A DNA stretch of 42,768 bases from NCBI GenBank assembly GCA_038868975.1, contig JAWCSA010000003.1:1-42768 (forward strand), in the 5' to 3' direction. Made by a program: the position numbers and the translations under genes. This document shows positions 278 to 41,564 of this stretch, in pieces. Positions within the stretch are counted from its first letter, which is position 1; each line of letters opens with the position of its first letter. A model generated the notes under the pieces. It was not told where the DNA came from and ran no database searches. It saw nothing but the letters and a program-made list of their open reading frames with translations. The DNA is from Nitrososphaerales archaeon (GTDB taxonomy: Archaea > Thermoproteota > Nitrososphaeria > Nitrososphaerales > UBA213).

Positions 278-1120
278 ATGAAGCGACTATTAGTATACCT
301 CTTGCTTGTATCCGGAATTCTCCTTCCTATAATATCTGTTAACGCTTTGTCTGATTTAAACACGTATATAGGCATAGAAGTAGCCTCTGCAGATCCGAAT
401 AGCGGCAAATCGTACGATCCTAAAGAAATCACTATAGTCAAGGGAACGACAGTGATATGGATAAACAAGGACACGAGTGGTCATTCTGTGGTAAGCGGTA
501 ATCCTGCTGATACTAACGTAGGTAGGTTTTTTGATTCGGCATTTCCGCTTATAAGACCAGGAGCGACGTTTGAACATGGGTTTGACGAGGTAGGCGAGTT
601 TCCTTACTTTTGCTCCGTACATCCATGGATGAAAGGCAAGGTGATGGTAATGGAGAAAGAGGGATCTATAAAACCATTGGAAAACAATTCTGAAAAACCA
701 ATGGTAGCACCAACCGATAGAGGTTCACTTGACGTAGAACTCTCGCTATCTCCTTTCCCAGTAGAACCTCAACAGGAAACAAAGATGCACATAAGGTTCC
801 TTCAGAAAGGGAAGGATACGGTACAACAGCACATAGATTATAAAATATTCGTGGAGAAGGACGGTATAGAGGTATTTAGGATACCTCTAACCCATACAAA
901 TCCAGGCGAAGTAACAATACCATATTCCTTTACATCTACTGGCAACTTTATGATAGGTGTTGATGTAGAAGGCATACTCTTCCAACCTATACCAAAGGAA
1001 ACTGCAGTTTTTTCAGTTACTGTTGTGCCTGAATTTCCTGTTAGCGTAATGTTCGTAACGGCTGCTATCTTAGCATTGATGTTGTTGATAATCAGATTTA
1101 AACTAGTAAAAACTATATAA
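278..1120 (+). CDS. Secreted plastocyanin-like (type-1 cupredoxin) protein with a C-terminal Ig-like module and a PEF-CTERM anchor
   Basis: Signal peptide MKRLLVYLLLVSGILLPIISVNA. Cupredoxin ligand pattern GHSVV ... FPYFCSVHPWMKGKV (H, C-x2-H-x2-M). C-terminus VVPEFPVSVMFVTAAILALMLLIIRFK is PEF + TM + basic tail. Confidence 0.85.
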   Translation: MKRLLVYLLLVSGILLPIISVNALSDLNTYIGIEVASADPNSGKSYDPKEITIVKGTTVIWINKDTSGHSVVSGNPADTNVGRFFDSAFPLIRPGATFEHGFDEVGEFPYFCSVHPWMKGKVMVMEKEGSIKPLENNSEKPMVAPTDRGSLDVELSLSPFPVEPQQETKMHIRFLQKGKDTVQQHIDYKIFVEKDGIEVFRIPLTHTNPGEVTIPYSFTSTGNFMIGVDVEGILFQPIPKETAVFSVTVVPEFPVSVMFVTAAILALMLLIIRFKLVKTI

Positions 1121-1140
1121 GCAAATGTTGTATGTAAATT

Positions 1141-2565
1141 GTGAATAGTCACTTACTATTTTCCGTTATAACAACTCTCGCAGTTCTTATTTCATTAAAT
1201 TTTATACCTGTTTTTGGACACGGCCTAGCTGGTGACATGCCACCTCCAATTGATCTTAGCGGTAAGAACGTAACAGTTTTTGTTAAGATGAACCCAGCAT
1301 CTTTGACGGCCAACGCACCTGAAGATGCTACGCTAGGAATAAGATTCTTTGATGTAAATACGGATCAAAACTTGCAGCAAGTAACATACAGAGTATGGGT
1401 AAAGAAAAGCAATAATTTATTGATGAATGAGTGGTTTTACGATCCAAACGGAGATCTGAGTATCAAAATAAGACCAACAGATACTAAACAGGTGAGGGTT
1501 TATGGAGAACAGGAACCTCAACTTGGAGGGTGGTATGGAAGAGGGAGCCCTGCCGTTGTTGAAGCGCCGATATTTCTTGAAGGTGGTTTGTACAATATCT
1601 TCGTCGAAATATTTAGTGTAAACACAACTAAGCAAATACTGGATCCACCATTGGAATTCGATGCATGGGTAAGTGTAGCAGAAGATAATTCATTTATGAT
1701 TGTTGATGATGGTAAGGAGTATCCAATTACCATAAGAACATACTTCGATACAATAGACCAATTTAGGTTCGAGGAGAGTAACAAAGTACTGACATTCAGC
1801 ATGCCATTCAACTGGGAACCAGAGTTTACACGGTATGTATATGTGGTGCACGAAGAAATTATCGTTCCTAAGGAGTTTGAAAGCTTCGTTAGATCTGGTA
1901 ACTTTGAGGCTACTGTGAATGGCGTTCAAATAGGCGGGAGGGCGTTGTTGGTAGATCCATATTCATTTGAAGACAAGTTGGTAATACATTTTCTCCTATC
2001 ACAGCAAGAACTGCAGAAGATAGGTGAGGAGATAATCATGGACGGTACATATCCGCACGAAATGCTTTTTGAATTAAGACCTGTTGAAGGAAAGCAGCTT
2101 GTCGAAGGGACTAGCATGAACTTGGTTACCGATAATGGCAGGGTAAGGATGCTACTTGCTTGGGATAAGGAATTCATTGAACCTGATACTCCTGTAAGGT
2201 TCGATATCACATTTTTTGACAGTACTACAAATATGATATTGCGTGACGTTCATTACAGCATAAAGATATTTGACGACAGTGGCAATGAGATCTTTTCGAG
2301 AGATAATTTGCTCAGTAATGAGGGTATAGACACACATGAGTATATGTTCGCAAGAACAGGAATTGCAACGGTGCAAGTGCATGTCATGGGTACAGGGCCA
2401 TTTGCATTTCAGATGGATACATCATTCATGGGAACGGCTGAAGGAACCATCCACGTGGTACCAGAATTTCCAATAGGTACCTTTATTGTGATTACAGGCG
2501 CCTTTGCTGCAGCGCTTTTAATTACACGACGGTCACTTAATACCGTTTTTAAGATCAAATACTGA
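1141..2565 (+). CDS. PEF-CTERM surface protein, paralogue A of a 458-474 aa family (function unknown)
   Basis: GTG start 20 nt after the previous stop. Signal peptide ends ...IPVFG/HGLAGD. Shares blocks EGGLYNIFVEIFSV, FSMPFNWEPEF and VHEEIIVPKEF with 2533..3909 and 7620..9044. Ends VVPEFPIGTFIVITGAFAAALLITRRS. Confidence 0.8.
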   Translation: MNSHLLFSVITTLAVLISLNFIPVFGHGLAGDMPPPIDLSGKNVTVFVKMNPASLTANAPEDATLGIRFFDVNTDQNLQQVTYRVWVKKSNNLLMNEWFYDPNGDLSIKIRPTDTKQVRVYGEQEPQLGGWYGRGSPAVVEAPIFLEGGLYNIFVEIFSVNTTKQILDPPLEFDAWVSVAEDNSFMIVDDGKEYPITIRTYFDTIDQFRFEESNKVLTFSMPFNWEPEFTRYVYVVHEEIIVPKEFESFVRSGNFEATVNGVQIGGRALLVDPYSFEDKLVIHFLLSQQELQKIGEEIIMDGTYPHEMLFELRPVEGKQLVEGTSMNLVTDNGRVRMLLAWDKEFIEPDTPVRFDITFFDSTTNMILRDVHYSIKIFDDSGNEIFSRDNLLSNEGIDTHEYMFARTGIATVQVHVMGTGPFAFQMDTSFMGTAEGTIHVVPEFPIGTFIVITGAFAAALLITRRSLNTVFKIKY

Positions 2566-3909
2566 TCTTGTCCTAGCAAATGCTATCGCTAATATAATTA
2601 GAACTGCGCTAACAGCATACACACCTGCTGGAAATTCAGGAACTACAGAAAGAAGCAGCGGTGCTGAATCGCCGCTATTGTTTATGTTTTGAATGTTGAG
2701 CATGATGGTACCTGTTTGATCCTTGCTAAAGGTATAATCCTGCACTATAGCACCGATCGGTGCAGCATGATGCTTTCTGAAAATCTCTTTTCCGTCCTTT
2801 AGCAAAACAAAATCAGCTCTGGCGTGCTGAAGTGTATCAAGCGTGTTTGGGTCTCTTATTGTAACTATGAATTTTGTAGGTCTGTCAGGTTCGATGGTAG
2901 GGGGGCTCCATGAGATCTGGAGTAGAAATTTCTCTCTTCCAGATAGAATCTCCAAGGGGAACTTTTGCACATCGCTTGGCGCAAGGGTGAATGTGGCAAC
3001 ATTCCTTTCTGCACCGGGTCCCAATCTTTGTGATATGGCTATCAATCTATCTTTTGGTACAACAAAGTGAACAGTGCGTATGTTCTCATACGAGTAATCG
3101 TCTATGATTACCTCTCTACTTGAGAGTTCAACACCGTTGAGTGTTCCTGTATAACTATTAGACATCAATTCAGCAAAATCGAGAGGGATCAGTACCTCTT
3201 CGTGTATCAATGGCACTTGACTTAGAAAGTTTACGTTCCAGTTCAATGGCATAGTGAATGCTACCTTTCTTTCTGAACTGGAGTACTGAAGATCATTTAT
3301 CTGATCATAATATGTTTTAATGAACAACGTTCTCGCGCTTTGCTCGGAATCGAAAACTTGGTAGTTGAAGGTCTTTCCTATGCTTGTATACAGATCGAAT
3401 CGCAATGGCTGCACAAGTCTGTTTTCGTACTGCTCCATGGATAGAACTGTCACACTGTAATGATATAGACCTCCACCAAGGACCCGTCCTCTCACTATGG
3501 GACTTGAGCTATCAGCAACTATAGCGTTGTAAATAGATTCCCTACTGCCAATGACCTGCGTACGATCGTTATCAACATGTTCAAATCTGATAGATAACAT
3601 GCCATCATGACTATGGAAATACTCATCAAAGAGAAGTTCTGAGGCTCGCATAAGCTTAATGTTAAATGTCACATGAGGGATTGTGCGATCGTTTGCTATC
3701 TCTCTAAGCCTAATTACACTTGTACCCTCCGTTTCTCCGTCTAGAAATGCTGGCTTCATATCGATTGTTAGTGAGAGCCGTTTGTTACCCACCAAAATTG
3801 AGTTTGATTCGACAAAACCAAGTGCCTGACCGTATATAGGCTGTTGCAGAAGACCTATCAGTATCACAACCACTGATAGTAATATGCAAATGGATATTGA
3901 AAACTTCAT
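2533..3909 (-). CDS. PEF-CTERM surface protein, paralogue B of the same family
   Basis: Signal peptide, then blocks GGGLYHYSVTVLSM, FTMPLNWNVNF and IHEEVLIPLDF. Ends VVPEFPAGVYAVSAVLIILAIAFARTRS. Its 3' end overlaps the 3' end of 1141..2565 by 33 nt (convergent). Confidence 0.8.
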   Translation of the reverse strand: MKFSISICILLSVVVILIGLLQQPIYGQALGFVESNSILVGNKRLSLTIDMKPAFLDGETEGTSVIRLREIANDRTIPHVTFNIKLMRASELLFDEYFHSHDGMLSIRFEHVDNDRTQVIGSRESIYNAIVADSSSPIVRGRVLGGGLYHYSVTVLSMEQYENRLVQPLRFDLYTSIGKTFNYQVFDSEQSARTLFIKTYYDQINDLQYSSSERKVAFTMPLNWNVNFLSQVPLIHEEVLIPLDFAELMSNSYTGTLNGVELSSREVIIDDYSYENIRTVHFVVPKDRLIAISQRLGPGAERNVATFTLAPSDVQKFPLEILSGREKFLLQISWSPPTIEPDRPTKFIVTIRDPNTLDTLQHARADFVLLKDGKEIFRKHHAAPIGAIVQDYTFSKDQTGTIMLNIQNINNSGDSAPLLLSVVPEFPAGVYAVSAVLIILAIAFARTRSVFDLKNGIK

Positions 3910-3954
3910 AACAGATAACTCCGAACTAACTTATATGGTTAAAGTATCGGGATC

Positions 3955-4629
3955 TTACTCCTCACCTTTACCTTTTCTAGTAAGGGAAACTATGGCTACA
4001 ATTATACCTGCGGCTCCAAGTCCCATTCCGATAATGCCAAAGTTGTAAGCCCTTTCAGCATCACTACCCAAATCTTCGGCTATCTTCCTTGCCTCCGTGG
4101 CACTACTTTCCGCATTATTGATCTTTCCTGCCATCTGCTCAACAATCAATTGCACCTGATTTATAGAGGATTGTAACTGCGACGCAATGTTTCTAATTTC
4201 GGTAGATTCTATAGATTTGTCAGGAAATGCTAGTTTCTGCTTGTCTTCCACATCTTCTATAGGTATTTCCGCATCCACATTGTTACCAGCAACTACTCCT
4301 TTTACTATAACTGTGTAACTGCCGAGCCTTGTTGGTATGATGGGGGAAGAATAAAGACCCAAGTGCTCAGTTGGTTCAAAGCTAAGTGTTTTTATTACAC
4401 CGCCATACCTTATTGCGACATCGACGTTTCTAAAATCGATGACAAGTGGCTGATCGCCTTTACTAAGTTCCAACACTATTGAATTTAATTCGCCCACAAG
4501 AGGAGGTTCATTCTTCCACCCAGAGACAACTCTAACATCACCAACGTTAATATCTGTATGTGCATAGGAAGAGTTGAACACCATAGTGGATAGCAATAGT
4601 ACAAATATCGAACATTTCGCTAAATTCAT
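3955..4629 (-). CDS. Membrane-anchored surface protein: predicted N-terminal His, Ig-like module, coiled coil, C-terminal TM
   Basis: The ORF is open to 4656 (TTG), but ATG 4629 (MNLAKCSIFVLLL...) sits about 30 nt downstream of a TATA-like ggtaatatttgg. Cleavage is predicted at SSYA/HTDINVG. The coiled-coil stretch SQLQSSINQVQLIVEQMAGKINNAESSATEARKIAEDL is followed by TM GIIGMGLGAAGIIVAIVSL and RKGKGEE. Confidence 0.7.
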   Translation of the reverse strand: MNLAKCSIFVLLLSTMVFNSSYAHTDINVGDVRVVSGWKNEPPLVGELNSIVLELSKGDQPLVIDFRNVDVAIRYGGVIKTLSFEPTEHLGLYSSPIIPTRLGSYTVIVKGVVAGNNVDAEIPIEDVEDKQKLAFPDKSIESTEIRNIASQLQSSINQVQLIVEQMAGKINNAESSATEARKIAEDLGSDAERAYNFGIIGMGLGAAGIIVAIVSLTRKGKGEE

Positions 4630-4719
4630 ATTCGCATAAGAATGGGTTTTGTCCAAATATTACCTTTGTGGAAACTTTATCAATCTTGTAAAAAGCGCAT
4701 AACATACAAATACTAAATT

Positions 4720-7575
4720 GTGATAGTTCGATCAATGAGACTTGATTTTTTGGGAGCAACGAACATAATCGTGCTTCTGTCCCTGTCGATCATCATAGTT
4801 AACCTTTTGCCTGTTCTTGCACATCCTTTTACTGTTGATACAGACCCAAAGGGTCTAGCTCAGCTTCAACAAGCACCTGAGAGCGTGATAATAGCATACA
4901 GTGAACCTGTTGAAGAAGGATTTAGTACCATCAAAGTACTCGATTCTTCTGGTAATAGAGTTGACAATGATGATACTAGGTATTTTCAGGGAGATAATAC
5001 AAAACTAGTCGTTACACTCAAGCCGTTAAAAGACGATGTGTACACTGTGATATCGAGGGTTTTGTCGCAGGTTGATGGACATGTTGTGGAATATACATAC
5101 GCTTTTGTCGTAGGAAATCCCAATGTTCCTATCCCAACAGCGCATATTACGCCAACCCAACCGCCTGTTTACCTACCTGAAACCTTCTCTAGATTTCCTG
5201 GGCTTGTGGGTCAAGTGATTATAGTCGGTATTAGCTTTGCATCATTATTTCTTTGGTTGCCAGTGAAGTTAGCGAACCTTAATTCTTCTATTGCAAAGAT
5301 ACGGACATTAGTTGATAGAAGATATGGTAAATCACTGCTAATTGGCGTTAGCCTTGTCATAACATCCGGTTTTGCAATGATCTTTGTGCAAGCATCATCG
5401 TTAGGGGTTGGCATTGAGGACGCTATTGCAACGAGTTTCGGTACCACATGGCTAGTAAGGATGCTATTAGCATTTGTCACACTTGCTCTATATTTTGCAC
5501 TGAGAGCAAAGAGACCTATAGGGAAGATCCATCATGCAACTGTTTTGGGTGTAGGGTTAGCCCTCCTTGCTACAACTACAATGATCGGTCATCCAGCAGC
5601 AACTACAAAACCAATTGCTATAGCTTTAGATTTCCTGCACAATATTGTGGCATCTGTTTGGATTGGCGGTCTCATGTACCTTGCGTTCGTAGCAATACCA
5701 ACCATAAGGCAATTAGGACTCGCTGCAAGGCATGCCATTATATCACTTCTCATACCAAGATTTTCAAGCATGACGGTAGTTGCGTTGGGCGCAGTTGCTA
5801 TAACAGGGCCACTGATGCTTTGGATGCTTGAGGACAATGTGAACGACCTGTTGCTTACATCATATGGTAAGCTACTCATTAGTAAGCTTATCTTGGCTGG
5901 GTTTATGATAGGTGTTGGAGCGTTTAATCAATTCAACATTCATAGCAAGGCAATAGCGCTGGTCAGGGCTGGGAAAGGTGCCACACAAACAGATGTGCAC
6001 AGCAGGTTTGACAAGAGCTTGAAAGTGGAATCTGCCATAGGGATAGCACTTTTGCTTAGCGTAGCCTTGCTTGCCAATTCGTCTCTTCCTGCGGGTGAAT
6101 TACCAATAAAAGCACTTGCAACTTCTGCTATCTCTGACAGAACCTTCAATGACAACATACAAGGATTCAGGCAAACACAGTTCACTGATGGAGCAATAGT
6201 GAATCTTTCAATTGCACCTGCAAGAACGGGAATGAATAATTTTGTGGTAAGGATAACCGACGATGCTAACGACACTATTGATGACATAAAGGTAGTTAGG
6301 ATCAAACTTACAAATGTTAGGGAAGGTATAGGGCCGCTGACATCCACCTTGTCTCATATAAAAGGTGCAGATTTTCAGGGCAATACTACCTTTACAATGA
6401 ATGGTCGCTGGAATGTGGAAGTGCTAGTGGAGAGGGTGGCAGCATTAAGTATAACAGCAGTCTTTGATGTAACGATCAAGCCTGAACTTAATGAACTAAG
6501 ATTCAACATAGAAGAGTATACGATGCCGGTGGCAGAATCCCTACCTCTGTTCCCACTGTATGACAATGGTAATCTATGGGTAAGTGACACTGCTAAGGCT
6601 CGCATCTTTAAATTTGATATAGCAAAGAAGGAGTTTCAACAATACAACGTACAGGGAAACTTGACCACCATACTTGATTTGGATAGTAAGGGAAATGTAT
6701 GGTTCTTGGATCCAGTTAGCAGAACATTCGGTTACGTTGAGCCTGCTAGTGGGTTGTTCAAAACCTATAGGACACCTTATTCAGGTCTTCCCATATCACT
6801 TGATATAGACTTCGATGATAACGTATGGATTGCGTTGTTGGATACGAACACAATTGTGAAATTTACACCATCATCGGAGATGTTCGAGACATTCACGCCG
6901 CCGACAGCGGACTCGCACCCGTCCGCTATAATAGTTGACGATTTTGGCACCGTTTGGTTCACTGAAGCTGCTGCTGGCAAGATAGCTATGTTGGATCGCA
7001 AGACTAGCGCTATTGAGGAGTATACTCCTGCAACGGGGCCAATGGCTGAACCATTTGCTCTGCTCATTGACGATGATAGAAAGATATGGATTGCTGAACA
7101 TCTTGGCCCCAAGATAACACGTTTTGATCCGACATTGCAAACGTTCATTAGTTATTCAGTTCTTGACAAGAACGCTTTGCCTTTTGGAATGACATCAGAT
7201 AGATTCGGAAATGTGTGGTTTGCTCAACATGTTACTGACGCTATAGGAGTGTTGAATCCACACAGTGGTAAGATGATAGAGGTTCCTGTGCCTACGCAAA
7301 CGTCATTTGTGCAATGGCTCGCAACAGACGACTTGGGAAGGATATGGTTTGCTGAACAAAGATCGTCAAAGATTGGCAGTGTGACTATTGCAGAAAGACC
7401 TGAGGGTATACCGATGGAACCTACCGAGGTGACAAAACCATTGTTCGAGGTAAGATACGCTGACATCGTTGCATCAGGTATTTCTTTGGCAATAATAGCT
7501 TCGTCGCTATTTTACGTAAAGAGCGTCCGCGATCTGAGAAAGAGTGTTAGACTAGTTAAGAGATCGGTTCTGTAA
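4720..7575 (+). CDS. CopC-CopD (YcnJ-like) copper-resistance/uptake fusion extended by a seven-repeat Vgb/streptogramin-lyase-like beta-propeller and a terminal TM helix
   Basis: The likely true start is ATG 4735 (MRLDF...), with an acaaatactaaa TATA-like box about 25 nt upstream. CopC region: LA/HPFTVDTDPKG...VIIAYSEPVEEGFSTIKVLDSSGNRV...VISRVLSQVDGHVVEYTYAFVVG. A polytopic CopD-like region follows. Seven repeats then occur: GNLWVSD..IFKFD, GNVWFLD..FGYVEP, DNVWIAL..IVKFTP, GTVWFTE..IAMLD, RKIWIAE..ITRFDP, GNVWFAQ..IGVLNP, GRIWFAE..IGSV. The final TM is IVASGISLAIIASSLFYV. Confidence 0.88.
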   Translation: MIVRSMRLDFLGATNIIVLLSLSIIIVNLLPVLAHPFTVDTDPKGLAQLQQAPESVIIAYSEPVEEGFSTIKVLDSSGNRVDNDDTRYFQGDNTKLVVTLKPLKDDVYTVISRVLSQVDGHVVEYTYAFVVGNPNVPIPTAHITPTQPPVYLPETFSRFPGLVGQVIIVGISFASLFLWLPVKLANLNSSIAKIRTLVDRRYGKSLLIGVSLVITSGFAMIFVQASSLGVGIEDAIATSFGTTWLVRMLLAFVTLALYFALRAKRPIGKIHHATVLGVGLALLATTTMIGHPAATTKPIAIALDFLHNIVASVWIGGLMYLAFVAIPTIRQLGLAARHAIISLLIPRFSSMTVVALGAVAITGPLMLWMLEDNVNDLLLTSYGKLLISKLILAGFMIGVGAFNQFNIHSKAIALVRAGKGATQTDVHSRFDKSLKVESAIGIALLLSVALLANSSLPAGELPIKALATSAISDRTFNDNIQGFRQTQFTDGAIVNLSIAPARTGMNNFVVRITDDANDTIDDIKVVRIKLTNVREGIGPLTSTLSHIKGADFQGNTTFTMNGRWNVEVLVERVAALSITAVFDVTIKPELNELRFNIEEYTMPVAESLPLFPLYDNGNLWVSDTAKARIFKFDIAKKEFQQYNVQGNLTTILDLDSKGNVWFLDPVSRTFGYVEPASGLFKTYRTPYSGLPISLDIDFDDNVWIALLDTNTIVKFTPSSEMFETFTPPTADSHPSAIIVDDFGTVWFTEAAAGKIAMLDRKTSAIEEYTPATGPMAEPFALLIDDDRKIWIAEHLGPKITRFDPTLQTFISYSVLDKNALPFGMTSDRFGNVWFAQHVTDAIGVLNPHSGKMIEVPVPTQTSFVQWLATDDLGRIWFAEQRSSKIGSVTIAERPEGIPMEPTEVTKPLFEVRYADIVASGISLAIIASSLFYVKSVRDLRKSVRLVKRSVL

Positions 7576-7587
7576 GTGTACTAGAAC

Positions 7588-7598
7588 GATATATATAT
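7588..7598 (+). promoter_or_regulatory. TATA-like box (gatatatatat) about 27 nt upstream of ATG 7620
   Basis: Position and composition match the other candidate boxes in this window. Confidence 0.35.
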
Positions 7599-7619
7599 CG
7601 TAACTAGAAAAGTACGCGT

Positions 7620-9044
7620 ATGAGAATGAAATTATTATTTTCATTTGCTCTTGCAGTATTAATTGGTATGAATGTTAACGTTAACCAAATGTTACCAAAT
7701 GCGTACGCACATGGTCTCGGTACCGAACAGACATTGCCTATGAATGTTGGTGATCGCATAGCTTTTCTGAGGGTTTCTATAGCACCAGAACTAAAAAAAT
7801 TTAATGAATTGAAAGATATTACCTTAACGATAGAAATGGTAGATGCGTTGTCAGGCCGGAATATACGGGGCGCTGGATATCATATCACAGTAGAAAAGTT
7901 TGCGAACGGCATTGTATTGCTAGAGGAGACTTTTCATGCTGCCAAGGATAACGAGAAGCTGGTAGTAAGATTCAAAACTACAGAAGGTGGAGATGTCTTC
8001 GTAAGAGGACAGAAAGTGGATGATACCCTAGGATATGTAGCAACTGACACACTTTCTGTCGAGGGCCCTGTATTTATGGAAGCAGGACTTTATCGATTTG
8101 CAATGGAAGTTGTTGTTATGGATGGCCAAATCGTGCCTATAGGCAAGAGGGCCATATTCGAGGCCTTTATCACTCTTGCCGAGAGCAGAACATTTGCAGT
8201 AACGTATAATGCTAAACAATATGCTTTAGAAACAATCTCCTATTTTGACAACATCGTAGATTTTGAATTCGAACCTAGCAGTATGAGTATAAAGATGATA
8301 ATGCCATTCAATTGGAACAGAAGTTTTGTCGAAAATGTTCCGTTATTACATGCTGAGATATTCATCCCCAAGGAGTTTTCAGAGCTGGCACAAAAGGAGT
8401 TTGTTGGACTAATTAACGGCGTAGAGGAACCAATATTTGTAGATAGATCACCACCTGACGAGGTAGTCATCCATTACACTACACCTAACAGGAGATTGCT
8501 ATCAATATCAGATATGATCATGCAAGAAGGGATGCCTACAAGCCTAGTTGAATTTGGCTTGGTTGTTAAAGATGGTACTATAGGCGATGGCGAAAATGGT
8601 TCTATACCTCCTCCTGTGATGAATGGATGGTCACCTCCAATGGAAACGCGCACTAGTGGTGGTAGCATTCTAGTACAAGTAGAGTGGTCACCGCTTATCA
8701 TTGATATTGATAAAGATACCACATTTAGATTAACATTTAGGGATCCATTGACAAAGGAAGTGATCCAGAACGTTGTTTATGACGTAATGTTGTATGATCC
8801 AAATGGTGAACATGTTGACAGATCGCATAGGTCAAGGCAGACAGCTGAAACTCAAACTTACAGATTTGCTGAACCGGGTAAATTTACATTACTTCTCACA
8901 AACGTGAACAACACCGGCGAAAGGGCGGGGTTTTCACTTTCAGTCGTGCCGGAGTTTCCATTGGGCGTTATGTTCATTATGGGTTCAATGCTTGCCATAA
9001 TGTTTGTAATATTAAGGGTTAGAGGCTTTCATGGAAAACCTTAG
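7620..9044 (+). CDS. PEF-CTERM surface protein, paralogue C of the 458-474 aa family
   Basis: Signal peptide ends NAYA/HGLGTEQ. Blocks EAGLYRFAMEVVVM, MIMPFNWNRSF and LHAEIFIPKEF. Ends VVPEFPLGVMFIMGSMLAIMFVILRVRGFHGKP. Confidence 0.85.
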   Translation: MRMKLLFSFALAVLIGMNVNVNQMLPNAYAHGLGTEQTLPMNVGDRIAFLRVSIAPELKKFNELKDITLTIEMVDALSGRNIRGAGYHITVEKFANGIVLLEETFHAAKDNEKLVVRFKTTEGGDVFVRGQKVDDTLGYVATDTLSVEGPVFMEAGLYRFAMEVVVMDGQIVPIGKRAIFEAFITLAESRTFAVTYNAKQYALETISYFDNIVDFEFEPSSMSIKMIMPFNWNRSFVENVPLLHAEIFIPKEFSELAQKEFVGLINGVEEPIFVDRSPPDEVVIHYTTPNRRLLSISDMIMQEGMPTSLVEFGLVVKDGTIGDGENGSIPPPVMNGWSPPMETRTSGGSILVQVEWSPLIIDIDKDTTFRLTFRDPLTKEVIQNVVYDVMLYDPNGEHVDRSHRSRQTAETQTYRFAEPGKFTLLLTNVNNTGERAGFSLSVVPEFPLGVMFIMGSMLAIMFVILRVRGFHGKP

Positions 9045-9107
9045 ATGAATCAAAAAACATACAAATATACGTGTAGGGATATTTGCTTATGAACACCAGA
9101 ATTATTG
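8944..9107. repeat. 164-bp direct repeat, copy 1 (3' end of 7620..9044, the intergenic spacer, and the first codons of the next gene)
   Basis: By eye, base-for-base identical to 9510..9673 (offset 566 bp). Flanking bases differ on both sides (g/a before, t/c after). Confidence 0.9.
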
Positions 9108-9610
9108 TAGATGCCTTCCTTATAACGTCAGTAATTATTCTGGCATCTACAACGATGAATAATAGCATACTTGATGCATTGGGACAGCAACCCAAACACC
9201 CAGCATTTCATGGTACAAAAACTGTAGCGGGATTTCACGTTGAGTTAACTGTAGATCCTACGCCCATCGAACCAAATGTGATTACCAAGTTTGGTACGCG
9301 TTTTATGGATGCTACTACAGGGGAACTTGCATCAAAAGTTCCTCACACACTTGTGCTTATGCGTGACGGAGAGATGATCTTCCGCGAATCCACAGATTCT
9401 GCAAGTTATTTGCATGAATTCAGCTTTATGGAGGAGCATCAGGGACCATTAACAGTTTTGATAGAAAATGTGAACAACAGTGGAGAGAATGCGGATTTCA
9501 GCTTGATGATCGTGCCGGAGTTTCCATTGGGCGTTATGTTCATTATGGGTTCAATGCTTGCCATAATGTTTGTAATATTAAGGGTTAGAGGCTTTCATGG
9601 AAAACCTTAG
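9083..9610 (+). CDS. Short PEF-CTERM protein carrying only the C-terminal Ig-like module of the paralogue family
   Basis: Probable ATG at 9089 (MNTRII...). The module TVDPTPIEPNVITKFGTRFMD...HTLVLMRDGEMIFRES...LTVLIENVNNSGENADFSLMIVPEFPLGV... aligns with the last ~130 aa of 7620..9044. The final 34 codons are identical to that gene. Confidence 0.75.
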   Translation: MLMNTRIIVDAFLITSVIILASTTMNNSILDALGQQPKHPAFHGTKTVAGFHVELTVDPTPIEPNVITKFGTRFMDATTGELASKVPHTLVLMRDGEMIFRESTDSASYLHEFSFMEEHQGPLTVLIENVNNSGENADFSLMIVPEFPLGVMFIMGSMLAIMFVILRVRGFHGKP

Positions 9611-9673
9611 ATGAATCAAAAAACATACAAATATACGTGTAGGGATATTTGCTTATGAACACCAGAATTATTG
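9510..9673. repeat. 164-bp direct repeat, copy 2
   Basis: Identical to 8944..9107. It spans the 3' end of 9083..9610, the spacer with the TATA-like acaaatatac, and the first codons (MNTRII) of 9649..10113. Confidence 0.9.
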
Positions 9674-10113
9674 CAGGTGTGGGCGCTGGTTTAGCAGTTG
9701 TTGCGATACTTGCTTATTTCGCTAGTACACAACCACAAACGACTGAAGTAAGAGAGATACATGGGGCTGGTTTGCAAAACGCTCACAAGTGTATTAAAGG
9801 TGATTTCAAGGCAGATCCATCTGCTAACATTGTAGAAATAACAATGGATGCATATCAATGGAGGTACGGTTATTGCTCCATAACGGTATATGAAGGTCAA
9901 AGGGTGATGATTGCTTTGCAGAGCTTGGACGTGCCACACGGATTTGCTATAGACGGTTATCCAGAAGTAAGTAGTACATTCATAAGCCCAAATGCGCAAT
10001 CTGTAGTAACGTTCAGTGCAGACAGGGTTGGTAGCTTTACCTACTATTGCACGGTATTTTGTGGGGAAGGACATCCCTTGCATAAGGGACAGCTCGTGGT
10101 TCAATCAAGATAA
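9649..10113 (+). CDS. Membrane-anchored CuA-like cupredoxin (cytochrome oxidase subunit II-like copper domain), orphan
   Basis: Probable ATG at 9655. N-terminal TM AGVGAGLAVVAILAYFA. The motif VPHGFAI...(36 residues)...CTVFCGEGHPLHKG matches H-x(n)-C-x3-C-G-x2-H-x2-[M], with His in place of the usual Met and Val in place of Glu. Confidence 0.75.
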   Translation: MLMNTRIIAGVGAGLAVVAILAYFASTQPQTTEVREIHGAGLQNAHKCIKGDFKADPSANIVEITMDAYQWRYGYCSITVYEGQRVMIALQSLDVPHGFAIDGYPEVSSTFISPNAQSVVTFSADRVGSFTYYCTVFCGEGHPLHKGQLVVQSR

Positions 10114-10116
10114 GAA

Positions 10117-12507
10117 ATGAAGAGCAGGATAATGGTTCCAGCAATAGCTGTTGTAATAGCCGCAGGCATAGTAGTAGTTCTTATGCTAAGCATGTATACG
10201 CAAGAAAAAATATCCATCAGTAAGGACGATGAGTTGAACTTAGCGCTATATTGCGGTTCTGGCATTGCAAAGTCTACCGAATACATAAAAGAATATGTAA
10301 TACCCACTCCATGTGCACAGCCCATAGGCATTGTTGTTGATGGAGATGGCTACGTATGGTTTGCAGAGTCTAGTGTTAGGAAGATAGCCAGGTTTGATCC
10401 TAAAATTGAAACTTTTGAAGAGTTTTCATTGCCAGATGGTGCAGTAAGTAGGGATTTTGCAACTTCTGGAATGTGGTCAATGATACTTGATGAAAATCAG
10501 GACATCTGGTTTACCGATGTTGGTGGTAACTCGATATGGAAGTTTTACCGCACATCAAAGATATTTGAGAGGTATAAAATTCCAACGCAGGGGAGTTTTC
10601 CATTAGGTCTAGCAGTAGATAAAGATGGAAAGATCTGGTTCACGGAGGCATTTGGAAAAAAATTTGGTTATGTAGATCCGAAACAAAGAATATTGTATGA
10701 GCTTTCTCCACCAATACAGCCAGATATAATGGGTGGCCTTACGATAGACCGGCACAACAATGTCTGGTTTAACATATTGCAAGCTTCTGGAGGATATGTG
10801 ATCATGTATGAGCAAGCAACTGGATATTATAAGAAGTATCCCATGCCCATAGGTGTAACATCACCTATAGGCATATCAATCGATAACGAGGGTAACGCAT
10901 GGGTTAGCGATCATGGCACCAGCATCTTCTTCAAATTAGATACAAGGAATAACATGACCAAGACATATGTTACCTCCATGCCACTCCCCAGAACATCTAT
11001 AGGTACTGGGGGACAACCAACAACTTTACCATACTGGAATATGATTGATAAAGATGGAAGGATCTGGATTAACGAGCATCAGGGCAGCATGATAGCTGTG
11101 TTAGATCCAAGCAATGGCAGTTTGATAGAATATTTCGTTCCATCGCAAAATCCTTGGTATGGTTCCTGTGAGGGGCAAGAGAACTGTGGAATTGCTAACC
11201 CATTGCAATTCGCTATGGCGCCTGATGGTAGGATATGGTTTACGGAGTGGAGCGAAAGTAAGATAGGCGTATTGAATCCAGACATTCAGATACCATTTTC
11301 ACTTGATCTGGACAAGAACATTGTTGAGGTTGAGAGAGGACGTGCAGTCAAAATTGGAATGGAAATCGTGTCAGACAGTATTGACGTCTCTGACGCTGTG
11401 TTGTCTTTATCTGGAACCTTTACACCTTCTGGGCAGCTCTGGCGTATGAATACTTTGCTGGACGCCATGCCAAACTCAGATGTTAGAAAGGTTGTGCTGA
11501 CTCTCAATCCAAGTCAATATCTGGTAGCAGGTACATACAACATAATGGTTAGTGCAAATTACGGAGATGTAGTTTATTCAAAGGCACTAGAAGTGGTCGT
11601 AAAGGAACCGTCACCCATAATACGTTCGTTTGTAAGGGGGCAAACTTTTGCAGGTTTTGTAACTGGGGATGGTTGGGTTGAGTTAGATAAAGATCGGTAC
11701 GAGGTTGGCACTTATGCGACCATCTCGGGAGGTTTCTTAAGTCATTACGATCCTGTAGAGCCAGTTTACGTTAGGGTCTATGCTCCCGATGATTCCGAAT
11801 ACAGCTCACACAAGGTTGCAATAGAACCTTCTGGAAGGTTCAGGGTACAGTTTCTACTTGATGATATCAGACTCTTCGGTACCTATAAGGTAATTGCAAG
11901 TTATGCTGAAGATAACGTAATACTGTATTTTAATGTGGAAAATCCTGCAGATAAACCAGAGGCGTTTCAATTCTCGTTCAACAGGATATCATACAATCCT
12001 TCCTTCTATTGTGCAAAATACAGTCTAGCAGGCTATGTAGAAAGTGAAGAACAGCTAAATGCAATTGAATCATCTGGGAGGATAAGAATGCGTGCAGGAA
12101 CAATAGAAAAAACAGGAGCGGAGGATGATGGTATGGCAATAAGAATACCAATAGCACCGATTGACATTGATTCTGGGTTGCGCATTGCTGTAGTGCATTC
12201 TGAAATAAATGTGTATAAAGATGGAAAGATCTTATGGAACAATCGCATCCATTCTCATTGTGGCAACACAGATGTCATTATAAAGAGTAGAAACATAGCA
12301 GTAGGTGATTCCATAAGGGTTGAAGCCCCATTCTCCATGGAAATAGGTGTCACACAACACTTTTTGCAGAACGTATATGAATCAACATACACACTACCAA
12401 CATTTAATGAAAAGGGCAAGTATACGGTAGATGCGCAACTTGTCTGGATCGACTTTTTGCCTATACAAAAACCACCTCCAGTTACGCTAAGCTTTAGTGT
12501 CGAGTGA
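10117..12507 (+). CDS. Membrane-anchored seven-repeat Vgb-like beta-propeller protein with C-terminal Ig-like/beta-sandwich domains
   Basis: The ATG lies 3 nt after the previous stop (operonic). TM VPAIAVVIAAGIVVVLMLSM. Seven repeats: GYVWFAE..IARFDP, QDIWFTD..IWKF, GKIWFTE..FGYVDP, NNVWFNI, GNAWVSD..FFKLD, GRIWINE..IAVLDP, GRIWFTE..IGVLNP. About 400 aa of beta-rich sequence follow. Confidence 0.85.
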   Translation: MKSRIMVPAIAVVIAAGIVVVLMLSMYTQEKISISKDDELNLALYCGSGIAKSTEYIKEYVIPTPCAQPIGIVVDGDGYVWFAESSVRKIARFDPKIETFEEFSLPDGAVSRDFATSGMWSMILDENQDIWFTDVGGNSIWKFYRTSKIFERYKIPTQGSFPLGLAVDKDGKIWFTEAFGKKFGYVDPKQRILYELSPPIQPDIMGGLTIDRHNNVWFNILQASGGYVIMYEQATGYYKKYPMPIGVTSPIGISIDNEGNAWVSDHGTSIFFKLDTRNNMTKTYVTSMPLPRTSIGTGGQPTTLPYWNMIDKDGRIWINEHQGSMIAVLDPSNGSLIEYFVPSQNPWYGSCEGQENCGIANPLQFAMAPDGRIWFTEWSESKIGVLNPDIQIPFSLDLDKNIVEVERGRAVKIGMEIVSDSIDVSDAVLSLSGTFTPSGQLWRMNTLLDAMPNSDVRKVVLTLNPSQYLVAGTYNIMVSANYGDVVYSKALEVVVKEPSPIIRSFVRGQTFAGFVTGDGWVELDKDRYEVGTYATISGGFLSHYDPVEPVYVRVYAPDDSEYSSHKVAIEPSGRFRVQFLLDDIRLFGTYKVIASYAEDNVILYFNVENPADKPEAFQFSFNRISYNPSFYCAKYSLAGYVESEEQLNAIESSGRIRMRAGTIEKTGAEDDGMAIRIPIAPIDIDSGLRIAVVHSEINVYKDGKILWNNRIHSHCGNTDVIIKSRNIAVGDSIRVEAPFSMEIGVTQHFLQNVYESTYTLPTFNEKGKYTVDAQLVWIDFLPIQKPPPVTLSFSVE

Positions 12508-12662
12508 ATTTCTTGCGAGTTTTAATTTACATTCCTCTCCAAAAACTACATGAAGTTGATCAGGGATATCACACCTGCTGTGCAATAAGTGCAAATAAGC
12601 AACGTTACCACCGTGTGCCGTCTGCTTAAAGCATAGATGTTTTAGACTATGTATTGAAATAG

Positions 12663-12674
12663 TTTAAATTAAAT
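12663..12674 (+). promoter_or_regulatory. TATA-like box (tttaaattaaat) about 27 nt upstream of ATG 12694
   Basis: Spacing and composition as for the other candidate boxes. Confidence 0.35.
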
Positions 12675-12693
12675 CGCAAGCGCACAGATAGAG

Positions 12694-13884
12694 ATGAGAT
12701 ACTTACTGGTATTTGTATTAATGTTTTCAATTGCATTGTTTCCTATTGCCGAGGGTCACCTTTTTGGAGGGGAGACGAAAAATGTTGGAGGTTACAGTAT
12801 TACGTATGCAAGCATGCCATCCGATCCCGCTCCGGGAAGTGATGTTTTACTTGCGTTCAGTATAGTTAGCGGAAATGTTGATGTTACAGACACTGTAGTT
12901 AGGATAACTATCGCTAGGGACGGTGTTATTGTAACTGAAATGCCTGAAACAGCGTATCCAACGGGCGATATCTTTATCCCTTTCATATTCAGCGAGGATG
13001 GCGTATATACGATCACCATAGAAGCACAACCTAGAGGGGAGCAGGAACCAATAGTTGTAAGTTTTGAGCAGGTTATTGGACAGGTAGGGCTACAACCAAT
13101 CTATAAGGAAACTACTGATGTAGCTAATGCCATTGCGTTATCAGTTGTATTTGGTGTAATACCTCTTTACATAGGCCTTACCAATTCAAAGCTTTCCTAT
13201 AGGTTATCGAATTCATCAAAAGGGTTTATCATTAGCATTGCATTTGGCATAGTAATCTTTTCATTGATAGATCTATTCGGCGGTGCCTCAAGGCTTGGCA
13301 TAGATTTTGGTCTGCGAGCGGTTCCATTACAAGTCACACTCTTGCTTGCCCTAACAGGTGGTCTTGCTGTTCCATTTATTGTGGAACGATATTCAAGGAA
13401 TACAATTAACACACAGCAGCTAACGGCAACATACGCAGTAGCATATCTGTTTGCTACAGCAGTGGCATTTCATAGCTTTGCTGAAGGCGTTGTTGTTGGA
13501 TTCGATCTGCAGTCCGGATATTCATTTACATTCACACAGCGCTCATTACAGGCTGCAAGTTTCTTTCTCCATAAAATAGCAGAAGGAGTTGTTATATCAA
13601 TACCTCTTATGTTGCTAAGACCAAAAACAGAAACTTTCGCATTGGTAGGTATAGTGGGATCTGTACCGCTATTGATTGGCCTAATCCTAGCATATATGGG
13701 CATTCCCGGTGTAGGTGCCTCATATGGATTTGCGTTGGGAGCGGGTGTAGCCACGTATGTGCTGTTCAAACTCGGTTACCTATGCAACATGCTAACACAT
13801 AACAGGATGATCATGTTTTCTGGCATAGTAACAGGCTTGCTCTTCATGTACTTGGCAGGATGGATTCATTCAGTAGAGGTATGA
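12694..13884 (+). CDS. ZIP-family metal permease with an N-terminal extracellular Ig-like module
   Basis: Signal peptide ends ...FPIAEG/HLFGGE. A ~110-aa module follows (PAPGSDVLLAFSIVSGNVDVTDTVVRITIARDGVIVTE...DGVYTITIEAQP), then about 8 TM segments. These include the ZIP signatures AFHSFAEGVVVGF and FLHKIAEGVVISIPL. Confidence 0.8.
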   Translation: MRYLLVFVLMFSIALFPIAEGHLFGGETKNVGGYSITYASMPSDPAPGSDVLLAFSIVSGNVDVTDTVVRITIARDGVIVTEMPETAYPTGDIFIPFIFSEDGVYTITIEAQPRGEQEPIVVSFEQVIGQVGLQPIYKETTDVANAIALSVVFGVIPLYIGLTNSKLSYRLSNSSKGFIISIAFGIVIFSLIDLFGGASRLGIDFGLRAVPLQVTLLLALTGGLAVPFIVERYSRNTINTQQLTATYAVAYLFATAVAFHSFAEGVVVGFDLQSGYSFTFTQRSLQAASFFLHKIAEGVVISIPLMLLRPKTETFALVGIVGSVPLLIGLILAYMGIPGVGASYGFALGAGVATYVLFKLGYLCNMLTHNRMIMFSGIVTGLLFMYLAGWIHSVEV

Positions 13885-14271: not shown

Positions 14272-15591
14272 TCAATACACTACAAATTGCAATTCAACCG
14301 GGCTTTCAGTAAGTGGTTCTGGCTTTGGAGAATTATTCCAGATAAAGATCTGTATATAATAGATGTCAGGTTCATTGGGAATCCAAGATTGGGTGAATGT
14401 TGATGACCCGTTTACCAAGTCGTATGTTACATAAGAGAGCTCTGCGGTATGACCGGCAGCATTTTTTATCTGGATTATATAGGTTGCCTCCACAGGAGAA
14501 GGAAGGTTGCTTAGCAATGATGAGTGTATGAAAACCTGTTCCTTTGCACCTACGGAAGTAACCTCTGAACCTGCAGCATCAACAAGCAAGGTCTTGAGAA
14601 TCTTTACACTTGATTCCTTGCTGCCATTGGAAATATTAAAAGAAGATTGGCTGAGACCTGCTTCACTTACTTTATCTTGATCACCCACATAAAATACAGC
14701 GTCAGCAATTATACCATTGTAAAATGCCATCACCTTGAAGGAACCATTTGCTTCTGTAGGCATCTTCATCCTAGAGCTAAATGTTCCATCTGAGCTTATG
14801 GATATGTTATCTGTGTATAATTCGTCATTCTTACCAATAACTTCTACCTTAACTTCTTTCTGAAGCACTACAGGGCCAACCTTTCCATAAATCTTTATCA
14901 TATCACCAATGTTGTAATGCCTTTTATCTGTTCGTACTGTAAGATGGCTTTCAAAGAAACCTAGGTAAAGCCAGTTTAGCGCTTCGATATCACGCTGTGA
15001 TATTGCTTGCTCCTGATCATCATCCGCCGGATATGCGTACATAATGTCTATCGGTTCTTCGCCATTGTCATCAAAGTGTCCGAGGTTTAATGCATGGCCA
15101 AATTCATGCAATGCTGCCCTATAAAACAACTCTTTGGAGAGAGGCTGGGTACTCTCCGTTGTGACACGCTTCCCCTTCACCACTTCTGAGAACACGATCT
15201 TTGAGTGAGTTGGTAAGATGATATCTGCTTTGGTTATGGATGACTGATCCCAGTATTCTATATAGGTATAACCGGAATATCCATGACCTGTTACTTTGGA
15301 ATGTGTGCTAACTATATGCACGTTGATATGGCAGCCGGAACCATTAGAGATTGTGTAGCTAAAATGATCCCATCTTGACTTCCATTCCTCAACAGCTTTT
15401 ACAAAGAGATCTTCATACTCTTTACTTGCTGTGCTTGAAAGACAGATCATGAAGTTCAGATTGTTTTGCCATTTGGCAGGAACGGCGTAGCTAAAGTTTG
15501 TTGAATATGCATATGAAGTGGCAGGAAGCAATAATACTGAAATGGCTAACAAAATTATCCCATATTGTAGAAAGGGTTGCTGGCGCCTCAC
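14272..15591 (-). CDS. Secreted metzincin (matrixin/M10-like) zinc metalloprotease with C-terminal Ig-like domains
   Basis: GTG start and a signal peptide ending PATSYA. Zinc site AALHEFGHALNLGHFDD (HExxHxxxxxH spacing) with a downstream DIMYAY Met-turn. The C-terminal half is beta-rich (HYNIGDMIKIYGKV...GSFKVMAFYNG). Confidence 0.85.
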   Translation of the reverse strand: MRRQQPFLQYGIILLAISVLLLPATSYAYSTNFSYAVPAKWQNNLNFMICLSSTASKEYEDLFVKAVEEWKSRWDHFSYTISNGSGCHINVHIVSTHSKVTGHGYSGYTYIEYWDQSSITKADIILPTHSKIVFSEVVKGKRVTTESTQPLSKELFYRAALHEFGHALNLGHFDDNGEEPIDIMYAYPADDDQEQAISQRDIEALNWLYLGFFESHLTVRTDKRHYNIGDMIKIYGKVGPVVLQKEVKVEVIGKNDELYTDNISISSDGTFSSRMKMPTEANGSFKVMAFYNGIIADAVFYVGDQDKVSEAGLSQSSFNISNGSKESSVKILKTLLVDAAGSEVTSVGAKEQVFIHSSLLSNLPSPVEATYIIQIKNAAGHTAELSYVTYDLVNGSSTFTQSWIPNEPDIYYIQIFIWNNSPKPEPLTESPVELQFVVY

Positions 15592-37968: not shown

Positions 37969-38720
37969 ACCACGTCTGGTCTAAGCATACTGCCGCATTT
38001 TTCGCATGCTGTGGTCGATGCTGCAAGAAAGGTAATGCTTGAGAGCCCATTCTATGGAACAAGGAGGATGGCAGTGATGCTATCAAGAGAGTTAGGAAGA
38101 TCTGTTAACAGGAAGCAAGTTCAGCGTATATTCCACGCATTGGACTGGATTGATTGAACCTGCTAAAAAGAAGGCAGATATCATAAGATCAAAGGGTAAG
38201 GTAGTGAAGGCGACCAGACCATACGAGTTGTGGGAGGCTGATATAACATACATCTGGTGTGGAAACGATGGCTGGTGCTACCTGTTCAATGTCATAGACG
38301 TATTCAGCAGAGAATGGATAGCATACGCATTTGACACAACTGCAGTGAAGGAGAACGCCATACAGTCTGTAATTAACGCTCTAGCATCACATAAGCATAA
38401 GGTCAGTGTCAGCAAATTATCATTGAGGGTAGATAACGGCCCACAGTACAAGAGCAATGCATTCAGGGAATCCATGAAGAACTTGATTAAGGACCGAATA
38501 CATATTCAGAAATACTCCAGAGCAGAACGGGCATATAGAATCATTCCATAAGACGCTGAAGAGGGAGTACATCTGGATAAATGATTTCCAGAATTACCAG
38601 GAAGCTGAAATAGCGATAAGTAATGCGTTCATAGATTATAATCAGAACAGGATACATTCTGCCCTGGGATACAGAACGCACTACGAGTTTCTTTCAGAAT
38701 GGGAGATGGTGAATAAATAA
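37969..38720 (+). mobile_element. Decayed IS3-like element: integrase-core (rve, DDE) transposase ORF broken by at least two frameshifts
   Basis: Three frames join up. Frame 1: ...VMLESPFYGTRRMAVMLSRELGRSVNRKQVQRIFHALDWID*. Frame 2: LIEPAKKK...YELWEADITYIWCGNDGWCYLFNVIDVFSREWIAYAF...LRVDNGPQYKSNAFRESMKNL. Frame 3: ...EYIFRNTPEQNGHIESFHKTLKREYIW...YNQNRIHSALGYRTHYEFLSEWEMVNK*. Confidence 0.8.
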
Positions 38721-39483: not shown

Positions 39484-39511
39484 AACTTGGTTGGTTTGGT
39501 GATTCTAATCA

Positions 39512-41553: not shown

Positions 41554-41564
41554 TACAGCCTGCT

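Follow-up and report, generated by a model that had tools for sequence, protein, structure and literature searches.

Background

The closest characterised system to the locus described here is YcnJ/YcnI of Bacillus subtilis. The locus is an island of ten genes at positions 278 to 13,884 of a contig from a Nitrososphaerales archaeon (JAWCSA010000003.1, assembly GCA_038868975.1); the whole stretch analysed, 42,768 nucleotides (nt) in length, is called the window. YcnJ is a CopC-CopD-YtkA importer and YcnI a DUF1775 protein that binds Cu(II) at a mono-histidine brace. The extracellular domains of both bind Cu(II) via histidine-brace motifs and exchange it, and growth at limiting copper requires both proteins (PMC12154828, PMC8424229). 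CuA assembly is aided by the YtkA domain of YcnJ, which overlaps with CtaK in this (PMC13344008). In Nitrososphaera viennensis, a CopC/D pair, an exported protein of unknown function encoded between the two and several neighbours are induced 2.2- to 2.8 log2-fold by copper limitation, and a plastocyanin gene adjoins this cluster (PMC7785015).

The original prediction for the island, made from the DNA letters alone, was a copper relay at the cell envelope that belonged to no described system. The latter part was too strong, as YcnKJI is a characterised analogue (PMC12154828, PMC13344008) and the N. viennensis cluster is induced by copper limitation (PMC7785015). We consider it likely that the island is a Nitrososphaeria version of the CopC-CopD (YcnJ-type) copper-acquisition system. 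The predicted copper role at the envelope is well supported because the island encodes a YcnJ-type CopC-CopD-YtkA fusion, an adjacent membrane-tethered protein with a predicted N-terminal His, from a family that accompanies CopC-CopD genes at many loci, and two cupredoxins, and because its core is syntenic in distant relatives. A relay, and delivery to the enzymes of an ammonia oxidiser, we only infer, and delivery to ammonia monooxygenase is speculation.

Results

The CopC-CopD fusion

Ten real open reading frames (ORFs) were found in the interval, all at the positions predicted. All ten products are exported or membrane proteins, each with an N-terminal signal peptide or membrane anchor. Genes are named here by their lower coordinate, strands are given as + or -, and a slash marks a predicted signal peptide cleavage site. 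Gaps between the genes are short throughout, and the layout suggests three transcription units: g278 and g1141 (+), g3955 and g2533 (-), and g4720, g7620, g9083, g9649 and g10117 followed by g12694 (+), with a 186-nt gap ahead of g12694. The fusion gene is composed as follows.

4720 to 7575, +: g4720, CopC, CopD, YtkA-like and Vgb-lyase-like beta-propeller domains and a terminal transmembrane (TM) helix
4822 to 5112, +: CopC domain of g4720, with H35, D119 and H121, Met absent
5233 to 6078, +: CopD domain of g4720 (Pfam, NCBIfam)
6205 to 6423, +: YtkA-like domain of g4720 (Pfam, just under cut-off)
6505 to 7434, +: Vgb-lyase-like beta-propeller of g4720 (Pfam Vgb_lyase; Vgb in the PDB)

A CopC-CopD fusion had been predicted, and both domains scored above their Pfam cut-offs, CopC (PF04234) with 52.6 bits against 23.3 and CopD (PF05425) with 69.9 bits against 32.1. 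The NCBIfam CopD model covers amino acids (aa) 172-453, and seven to eight hydrophobic segments are present in CopD. Two further domains gave matches, one of them below its cut-off. The YtkA-like domain (PF13115) reaches 23.2 bits against a cut-off of 25.9, which its bacterial counterparts exceed with 26-46 bits. The beta-propeller matches Vgb_lyase (PF24684, cut-off 50) with 115.9 bits and PDB entry 2qc5 (Vgb) with an E-value of 8.5e-31. A second propeller, in g10117, matches the same Pfam model with 121.2 bits; in both cases this is a fold-family match and implies no enzymatic activity.

Cleavage at V-L-A/H35 would leave a CopC domain that starts with His and carries D119-G-H121, with zero Met in aa 35-131. 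The domain is thus predicted to be of the Cu(II)-only ligand class (N-terminal His and Asp-x-His, without Met). Orthologues of g4720 were found at 39-65% identity in four loci (L001, L002, L005 and L009), and His as well as the DGH motif is kept in four orthologues (4/4).

This arrangement resembles YcnKJI in the domain order of the fusion, in a CopC with N-terminal His and D-x-H but no Met site, and in a neighbour that combines a signal peptide and a C-terminal TM helix with conserved Trp, Glu and N-terminal His. It differs in that g4720 adds the Vgb-like beta-propeller and a final TM helix, and the archaeal cluster lacks the YcnK repressor and holds extra PEF-anchored proteins, cupredoxins and a ZIP-like permease.

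A family of predicted N-terminal-His proteins adjoining CopC-CopD genes

The neighbour in question is g3955, which is divergent from g4720 and codes for a beta-sandwich protein tethered to the membrane by a single pass.

3955 to 4656, -: g3955, signal peptide A-Y-A/H33, beta-sandwich ectodomain, helical stalk and C-terminal TM helix
4219 to 4560, -: ectodomain of g3955, aa 33-146, with invariant W47 and E50

The real start of g3955 is probably the ATG at 4629, as the listed TTG seems to lie too far upstream. This ATG is found 26-33 nt downstream of the TATA-like TAATATTT on the minus strand, and the full signal peptide is retained. A public gene call (P0121, 209 aa) starts the gene still later, which would delete the signal peptide.

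A profile search of 1.84 billion representatives (E <=0.001) gave a family of 1,431 clusters at 50% identity. Close relatives of g3955 keep H33 (after A-Y-A), W47 and E50 without exception, and in an alignment of diverse members the His is found at 90% or more. The diverse members have the signal peptide, A-x-A/His, G-W-x-x-E-P, beta-sandwich, helical stalk and C-terminal TM helix in common. No Pfam-A or NCBIfam model covers the family, and neither g3955 nor its family profile has a useful sequence match in the PDB. The Pfam YtkA model is matched faintly by only 3 of 35 diverse relatives, and DUF1775 by neither g3955 nor any of these 35. A model of the ectodomain (predicted local distance difference test score, pLDDT, ~90) has copper-binding CrdA of Helicobacter pylori as its best fold match, with a TM-score of 0.62; YcnI is not among the top 50 fold matches. 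In the model, strand 1 begins at His33 and the strand paired with it, strand 2, ends at Trp47; going by this hairpin register, His33, Trp47 and Glu50 should lie together.

A scan of metagenomes returned 430 relatives, and 80 of the loci were examined (L015-L094). The His was outside the search pattern. In 79/79 untruncated members it stands exactly 13 residues before the invariant G-W-x-x-E-P, with Ala at position -1. The gene adjoining these relatives on the same strand, usually immediately downstream, encodes a CopC-CopD-YtkA-cytochrome c fusion at all eight loci (8/8) tested with Pfam. With a local CopCD profile the neighbour was found at 54 of the 80 loci, and at 25/31 of those with at least 1.5 kb of downstream sequence. 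The motif CxxCH is present in 20 of 22 full-length bacterial CopCD neighbours. A PD40 beta-propeller gene occurs in 17 loci, and 14 encode a small lipoprotein in which a linker rich in His/Glu accompanies a DUF4399-like HWH domain; L029 6518-6994 and L071 7157-8293 are examples of these additional genes.

The g3955 family is therefore large, unannotated and adjoins CopC-CopD genes in bacteria and archaea. The bacterial operons consist of the A-x-A/H...GWxxEP protein, with or without the DUF4399-like lipoprotein, the CopC-CopD-YtkA-cytochrome c fusion and the PD40 beta-propeller. They share with the island the g3955-family His-protein, the CopC-CopD-YtkA core, a beta-propeller and a one-electron carrier. 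The carrier is a fused cytochrome c there and separate cupredoxins in the island, the propeller is a separate PD40-type gene there and a fused Vgb-type domain here, and the PEF-anchored three-domain proteins described below are missing from the bacterial operons. Since the bacterial CopCD is fused to cytochrome c and the archaeal clusters have cupredoxin genes, an electron-transfer step is suggested to be part of the system, and a redox step may be general in CopCD-type copper uptake.

By position and ligand set g3955 looks like an analogue of YcnI outside DUF1775; its Trp and Glu follow the His by 14 and 17 residues, and in YcnI the corresponding residues are far apart in sequence. More tentatively, and somewhat short of an even chance, the family may form a widespread class of copper-binding proteins tethered to the membrane. 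Their site, with N-terminal His, Glu and Trp, would resemble a mono-histidine brace and be convergent with YcnI, and they would be the standard partner, outside the cytoplasm, of CopC-CopD-YtkA importers in bacteria as well as archaea, in systems that obligatorily include a beta-propeller and a one-electron carrier (fused cytochrome c in bacteria, separate cupredoxins in ammonia-oxidising archaea, which are free of cytochrome c). If so, copper would undergo redox processing at the cell surface, or be freed there from organic ligands, before it is imported. The family, with its invariant signature A-x-A/H-x12-G-W-x-x-E-P, would be missed by neighbourhood surveys that depend on Pfam labels.

Two cupredoxins

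The island encodes two cupredoxins in addition to the fusion.

278 to 1120, +: g278, signal peptide, type-1 cupredoxin, beta-sandwich module and VPEFP + TM + basic tail
407 to 649, +: type-1 cupredoxin of g278, aa 44-124 (Pfam PF00127), with H69, C112, H115 and M118
695 to 985, +: module of g278, aa 140-236 (module hidden Markov model, HMM, domain E 3.9e-9)
1025 to 1117, +: anchor tail of g278, VPEFP + TM + basic
9649 to 10113, +: g9649, membrane-anchored cupredoxin with CuA-type ligands H97, C134, C138 and H142

The type-1 cupredoxin was called correctly: the plastocyanin/azurin model (PF00127, Copper-bind) matches g278 with 39.7 bits against a cut-off of 21.2, and the His-Cys-His-Met ligand set is complete. 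The fusion of plastocyanin and module recurs in the g278 orthologue of L005. For g9649, a CuA-like cupredoxin had been proposed, and the protein does align with solved CuA domains from NosZ and from subunit II of cytochrome oxidase (phmmer against the PDB, E 2.6e-8), with the His-Cys-Cys-His ligands in register and H145 in place of the axial Met. Pfam COX2 reaches 13.3 bits against a cut-off of 22, and NCBIfam gives NosZ/CoxB C-terminal matches.

Synteny in relatives

Co-occurrence of the ten genes in related genomes had been suggested as a test, and it was found to hold for a core of five. Genes 278, 1141, 2533, 3955 and 4720 are syntenic in distant Nitrososphaeria, and this linkage is firm. 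Locus L002, a Nitrososphaerales metagenome-assembled genome (MAG) with a CopCD 64% identical to that of the island, has the order module protein, g1141, g2533, g3955, CopCD, with cupredoxins upstream. In the much more distant L005 (CopCD 39%), orthologues of g2533, CopCD, g3955, g278 and g1141 lie within 11 kb. The second half of the island is linked more loosely. In L009, CopCD is followed by a g7620 orthologue split by insertion sequence (IS)/transposase genes, a module protein, a free-standing ZIP N-domain and a ZIP gene. In L010, from a related MAG, a two-domain multicopper oxidase, two paralogues, a CuA-like cupredoxin and a ZIP gene are adjacent; the oxidase (5268-6272, -, 334 aa, Cu-oxidase_3 + Cu-oxidase_2) lies directly beside the g2533 orthologue.

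The same island was called in three further MAG assemblies (L011-L013), which possibly represent one population, and the ZIP-like protein is 100% identical to one from a 'Nitrososphaerales archaeon' MAG. The following gene was found only in these MAGs and is absent from L002, L009 and L010, so it is the least firmly placed of the ten and its membership of the system is doubtful.

10117 to 12507, +: g10117, N-terminal anchor, Vgb-lyase-like beta-propeller, then ~400 aa of beta-rich domains

The N. viennensis genes NVIE_014250 to NVIE_014370 (Reyes et al. 2020, PMC7785015), compared by layout and annotation only, likewise combine CopC/CopD fusions, exported proteins of unknown function and a plastocyanin. 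The CopC/D gene is present there in two copies, and the promoter motif of that cluster is not enriched in the window.

Three-domain surface proteins and the recurring module

Four further genes encode PEF-anchored proteins built from beta-sandwich domains, and a direct repeat lies across two of the gene junctions.

1141 to 2565, +: g1141, three-domain beta-sandwich surface protein with PEF-type anchor
2533 to 3909, -: g2533, paralogue of g1141 (26% identity, BLASTP E 3e-55) with PEF-type anchor
7620 to 9044, +: g7620, third three-domain paralogue, predicted mature N-terminus H31-G-L-G-T-E36, with PEF-type anchor
9083 to 9610, +: g9083, one C-type module and a PEF-type anchor identical to that of g7620
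8944 to 9113 and 9510 to 9679, +: two copies of a near-identical direct repeat of 170 nt, 99-100% identity, spacing 566 nt

In g1141 the N-domain covers aa 27-190, the middle domain 191-318 and the C-module 322-441, and the predicted mature N-terminus is H27-G-L-A-G-D32. The AlphaFold (AF2) model, with pLDDT 89, has three beta-sandwich domains and an anchor helix, and a fold search with it returned generic multi-Ig/macroglobulin (MG) matches only. The g1141 family has more than 434 homologues, all in Nitrososphaeria, and no Pfam family. Its invariant residues Y201, D203, M221, H237, E239, D272 and H283 are all found in the middle domain. The third paralogue, g7620, matches g1141 with a BLASTP E-value of 8e-50; its orthologue follows CopCD in L009 and adjoins the g1141 orthologue in L003. 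In L012 (5546-6965) g7620 is called as two ORFs of 176 and 243 aa, reflecting a frameshift or an assembly error. Orthologues of g2533 are present in L002, L005 and L010. The convergent genes g1141 and g2533 overlap at their 3' ends by 33 nt (2533-2565).

A beta-rich module recurring through the island was one element of the original prediction. By BLASTP and a family HMM, one beta-sandwich module does occur at the C-termini of g278, g1141, g2533, g7620 and g9083 (C-module HMM domain E 4e-9 to 6e-40), and homology to it extends to the N-domains of all three paralogues (hhalign 95%, E 2e-8). Only faint matches came from the ZIP N-domain and from the YtkA region of g4720 (hhalign ~30% probability, E ~5e-4). 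The g3955 ectodomain, proposed as another copy, was rejected: hhalign compared it with C-module, N-domain, ZIP N-domain, CopC and YtkA region and gave a probability of less than 2% for each. The cluster of metal ligands expected of the module was not found either: no His, Cys or Met of the C-module is conserved in the family alignments, which makes a role as stalk or spacer likelier for the module than one as a metal site.

g9083 matches the C-terminus of g7620 (BLASTP E 1e-29) and the module HMM (E 2.3e-9). Each copy of the direct repeat spans the end of an anchor coding region, the promoter-like AACATACAAATA of the intergenic stretch and 10 codons at the start of the gene that follows, which results in an identical 33-aa tail in g7620 and g9083 and a shared MLMNTRII in g9083 and g9649. 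As the surrounding modules are only ~39% identical, recent gene conversion is suggested. An assembly artefact was considered and rejected, given the same gene order in three other MAG assemblies (possibly of the same population); g9083 itself was called in these three further MAGs.

Predicted mature N-termini and anchor tails

Exposure of His as residue 1 by signal peptide cleavage had been predicted for five proteins, and all five sites (in g1141, g3955, g4720, g7620 and g12694) fit the -3/-1 rule, so that cleavage would expose the His as proposed. The His is conserved in the families of g3955, CopC (where it is canonical) and the ZIP N-domain, the last of which starts with H-x-x-G-G-E in 12/12 members. 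In the g1141 family the claim holds for the majority: residue +1 is His in 59/77 members, Asp in 17 and Gln in 1, and residue +6 is Asp or Glu in 76/78. The g1141-family paralogues and the ZIP N-domain thus have a predicted mature N-terminus H-x4-[D/E] in common. The predicted mature N-terminus of g2533 is Gln.

The five VPEFP + TM + basic tails that had been listed are all present, and attachment of these proteins by an archaeosortase is what we infer from them. PEF-CTERM and PEFG-CTERM sorting signals were reportedly described together with archaeosortases by Haft et al. in 2012. The tails of the island proteins are similarly tripartite, with a VPEF motif, a hydrophobic helix and a basic end. 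They stay below the cut-off of TIGR04296 (PEFG-CTERM), which scores 10.7 bits against 25 and on g7620 alone, and the window has no archaeosortase gene. PEFG-CTERM proteins occur in Nitrosopumilus (PMC6593220). In many marine members of the g1141 family a Trp-rich C-terminal repeat stands in place of the PEF tail (46/78).

The ZIP-like permease

The last gene of the island was predicted to encode a ZIP permease.

12694 to 13884, +: g12694, signal peptide A-E-G/H22, N-terminal ectodomain and ZIP/ZupT-like permease
12757 to 13098, +: N-terminal ectodomain of g12694, ~115 aa
13111 to 13881, +: permease of g12694, with invariant H260..E264 and H293..E297

The motifs on which this call was based, HSFAEG and HKIAEG, are invariant across the family alignment. 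Pfam Zip (PF02535) scores 16.8 bits, below the cut-off of 35.1; it matches 8 of 21 family members (best E 8.5e-5), and neither g12694 nor its profile has a sequence match in the PDB. The assignment is therefore weak. Consistent with ZIP/ZupT proteins are ~eight TM segments and the two H-x-x-x-E-G motifs, placed where the sequence corresponds to ZIP TM4-TM5. ZIP4-type transporters have an extracellular N-terminal domain, and an extracytoplasmic N-terminal domain also precedes the g12694 permease; in g12694 this domain is a beta-sandwich, has a predicted N-terminal His and shows a faint relationship to the module. Homologues of g12694 are labelled ZupT by JGI. In L009 a free-standing protein of 184 aa (7067-7621, -), 34% identical to the ZIP N-terminal ectodomain, is encoded between the CopCD cluster and the ZIP gene.

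Discussion

Copper acquisition and its alternatives

If the island serves copper acquisition, g3955 and CopC would capture Cu(II), with g3955 binding it at a mono-histidine-brace-like site and exchanging it with CopC as YcnI does with YcnJ, and CopD would then import it. Copper could be held, stored or passed on at the envelope by the PEF-anchored multi-domain proteins and the YtkA-like domain. Plastocyanin and the CuA-like cupredoxin would give a one-electron redox step, a part that the CopCD-fused cytochrome c may play in the bacterial versions, and the ZIP-like permease with its own N-terminal-His ectodomain may be a second import route. The beta-propeller is recurrent, fused in archaea and a separate PD40-type gene in bacteria.

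Several observations weigh against this reading. The N-terminal residue is Asp in 22% of the g1141 family and Gln in g2533, and the C-module has no conserved metal ligands. As g3955 is not a DUF1775 protein, its analogy to YcnI depends on ligands, architecture and gene position; similarly, the likeness to the N. viennensis genes is one of layout and annotation. The ZIP call is weak, being below the Pfam cut-off, and the usual substrates of ZIPs are Zn, Fe or Mn. NikR-ZnuABC is interleaved in the L005 cluster, and in L003 and L007 g1141-family genes are found away from CopCD. The copper-limitation motif of N. viennensis, TTCSGSMTTTGWACYANT, stands there 35-70 nt upstream of start codons; the window shows no enrichment of it, with 3 matches (<=3 mismatches) against 1.84 expected.

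The cluster could instead mainly mature extracytoplasmic copper enzymes (the CuA of a terminal oxidase, blue copper proteins, ammonia monooxygenase), with the YtkA-like and N-terminal-His domains acting as metallochaperones. YcnJ's YtkA domain is partly redundant with CtaK in CuA assembly (PMC13344008), the cluster has genes for a CuA-type cupredoxin and a plastocyanin, and every product is extracytoplasmic, all of which would fit. On the other hand CopD and the ZIP-like protein are polytopic transporters, the import-dependent phenotypes of B. subtilis need the CopC and CopD sites, and the window contains no oxidase or amo genes. We regard this explanation as unlikely in its own right; it is compatible with copper acquisition and does not exclude it. 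A classical CopCD-type resistance or sequestration island, which binds excess copper at the surface and keeps it out of the cell, is very improbable. In its favour, the names CopC and CopD derive from resistance, a large number of binding domains tethered to the surface could serve as a sink, and YcnI has been proposed as a Cu(II) sequesterer (PMC12154828). The island shares the CopC and CopD domains with Pseudomonas CopABCD, but it has no CopA multicopper oxidase or CopB (neither these nor an efflux ATPase is encoded in the window), its CopC lacks the Met-rich Cu(I) site and is fused to CopD, and the N. viennensis CopC/D genes go up under copper limitation (PMC7785015).

Equally little credence is given to the PEF-anchored proteins being general envelope or S-layer-associated proteins without a metal role, placed beside an ordinary CopCD, with the ZIP-like permease serving zinc or another divalent metal. 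This would agree with the C-module without conserved His, Cys or Met, the generic Ig/macroglobulin fold matches, the g1141-family genes remote from CopCD, the interleaved NikR-ZnuABC and the ZupT label. What speaks against it is that the linkage recurs where CopCD is only 39% identical, that the H-x4-[D/E] N-terminus is common to the paralogues and the ZIP N-domain, that the module is fused to plastocyanin in g278 and its L005 orthologue, and that of the seven invariant residues of the middle domain four are of the His/Asp/Glu type. Copper acquisition remains the reading we prefer. It ties a conserved archaeal CopC/D cluster to one biochemically studied system, YcnJ/YcnI, and proposes, for several 'exported proteins of unknown function', roles and residues that can be tested. 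Two families are worth experiments, the A-x-A/H...GWxxEP partner of CopCD and the three-domain surface family of Nitrososphaeria.

Upstream elements and surroundings of the island

One match to the copper-limitation motif is positioned directly upstream of a TATA-like box for g278, and as a candidate it is weak.

228 to 245, -: candidate motif match with 2 mismatches

Another match to TTCSGSMTTTGWACYANT was discarded, because it falls within the coding sequence of g3955, which also accounts for its conservation in L002. A comparison of the upstream regions for common 9-mers yielded nothing beyond the TATA-like AACATACAAATA.

No tRNA or Rfam matches were obtained within the window. Beyond the island, the window has genes for secreted proteases and a two-component system, an exopolysaccharide-type cluster and remnants of mobile elements. 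A matrixin-like metalloprotease is the product of the gene next to the island (14272-15591, -); its long, beta-rich C-terminal tail is similar (E 7e-11) to a weakly SlaA-like protein whose gene in L007 lies 5 kb away from the g1141 homologue. Further on, at 21214-23073, a subtilase with CARDB domain is encoded. Three adjacent genes at 23856-28819 (-) look like an exopolysaccharide or biofilm module; their products are a 903-aa polysaccharide deacetylase with CARDB, a 448-aa family-2 glycosyltransferase and a 317-aa protein with TackOD1, a thaumarchaeal output domain. Remnants of the mobile-element or toxin-antitoxin type are found at 38150-42182 and comprise a fragment of an rve integrase core, a PIN-domain protein and a DUF6036/DUF2204 nucleotidyltransferase.

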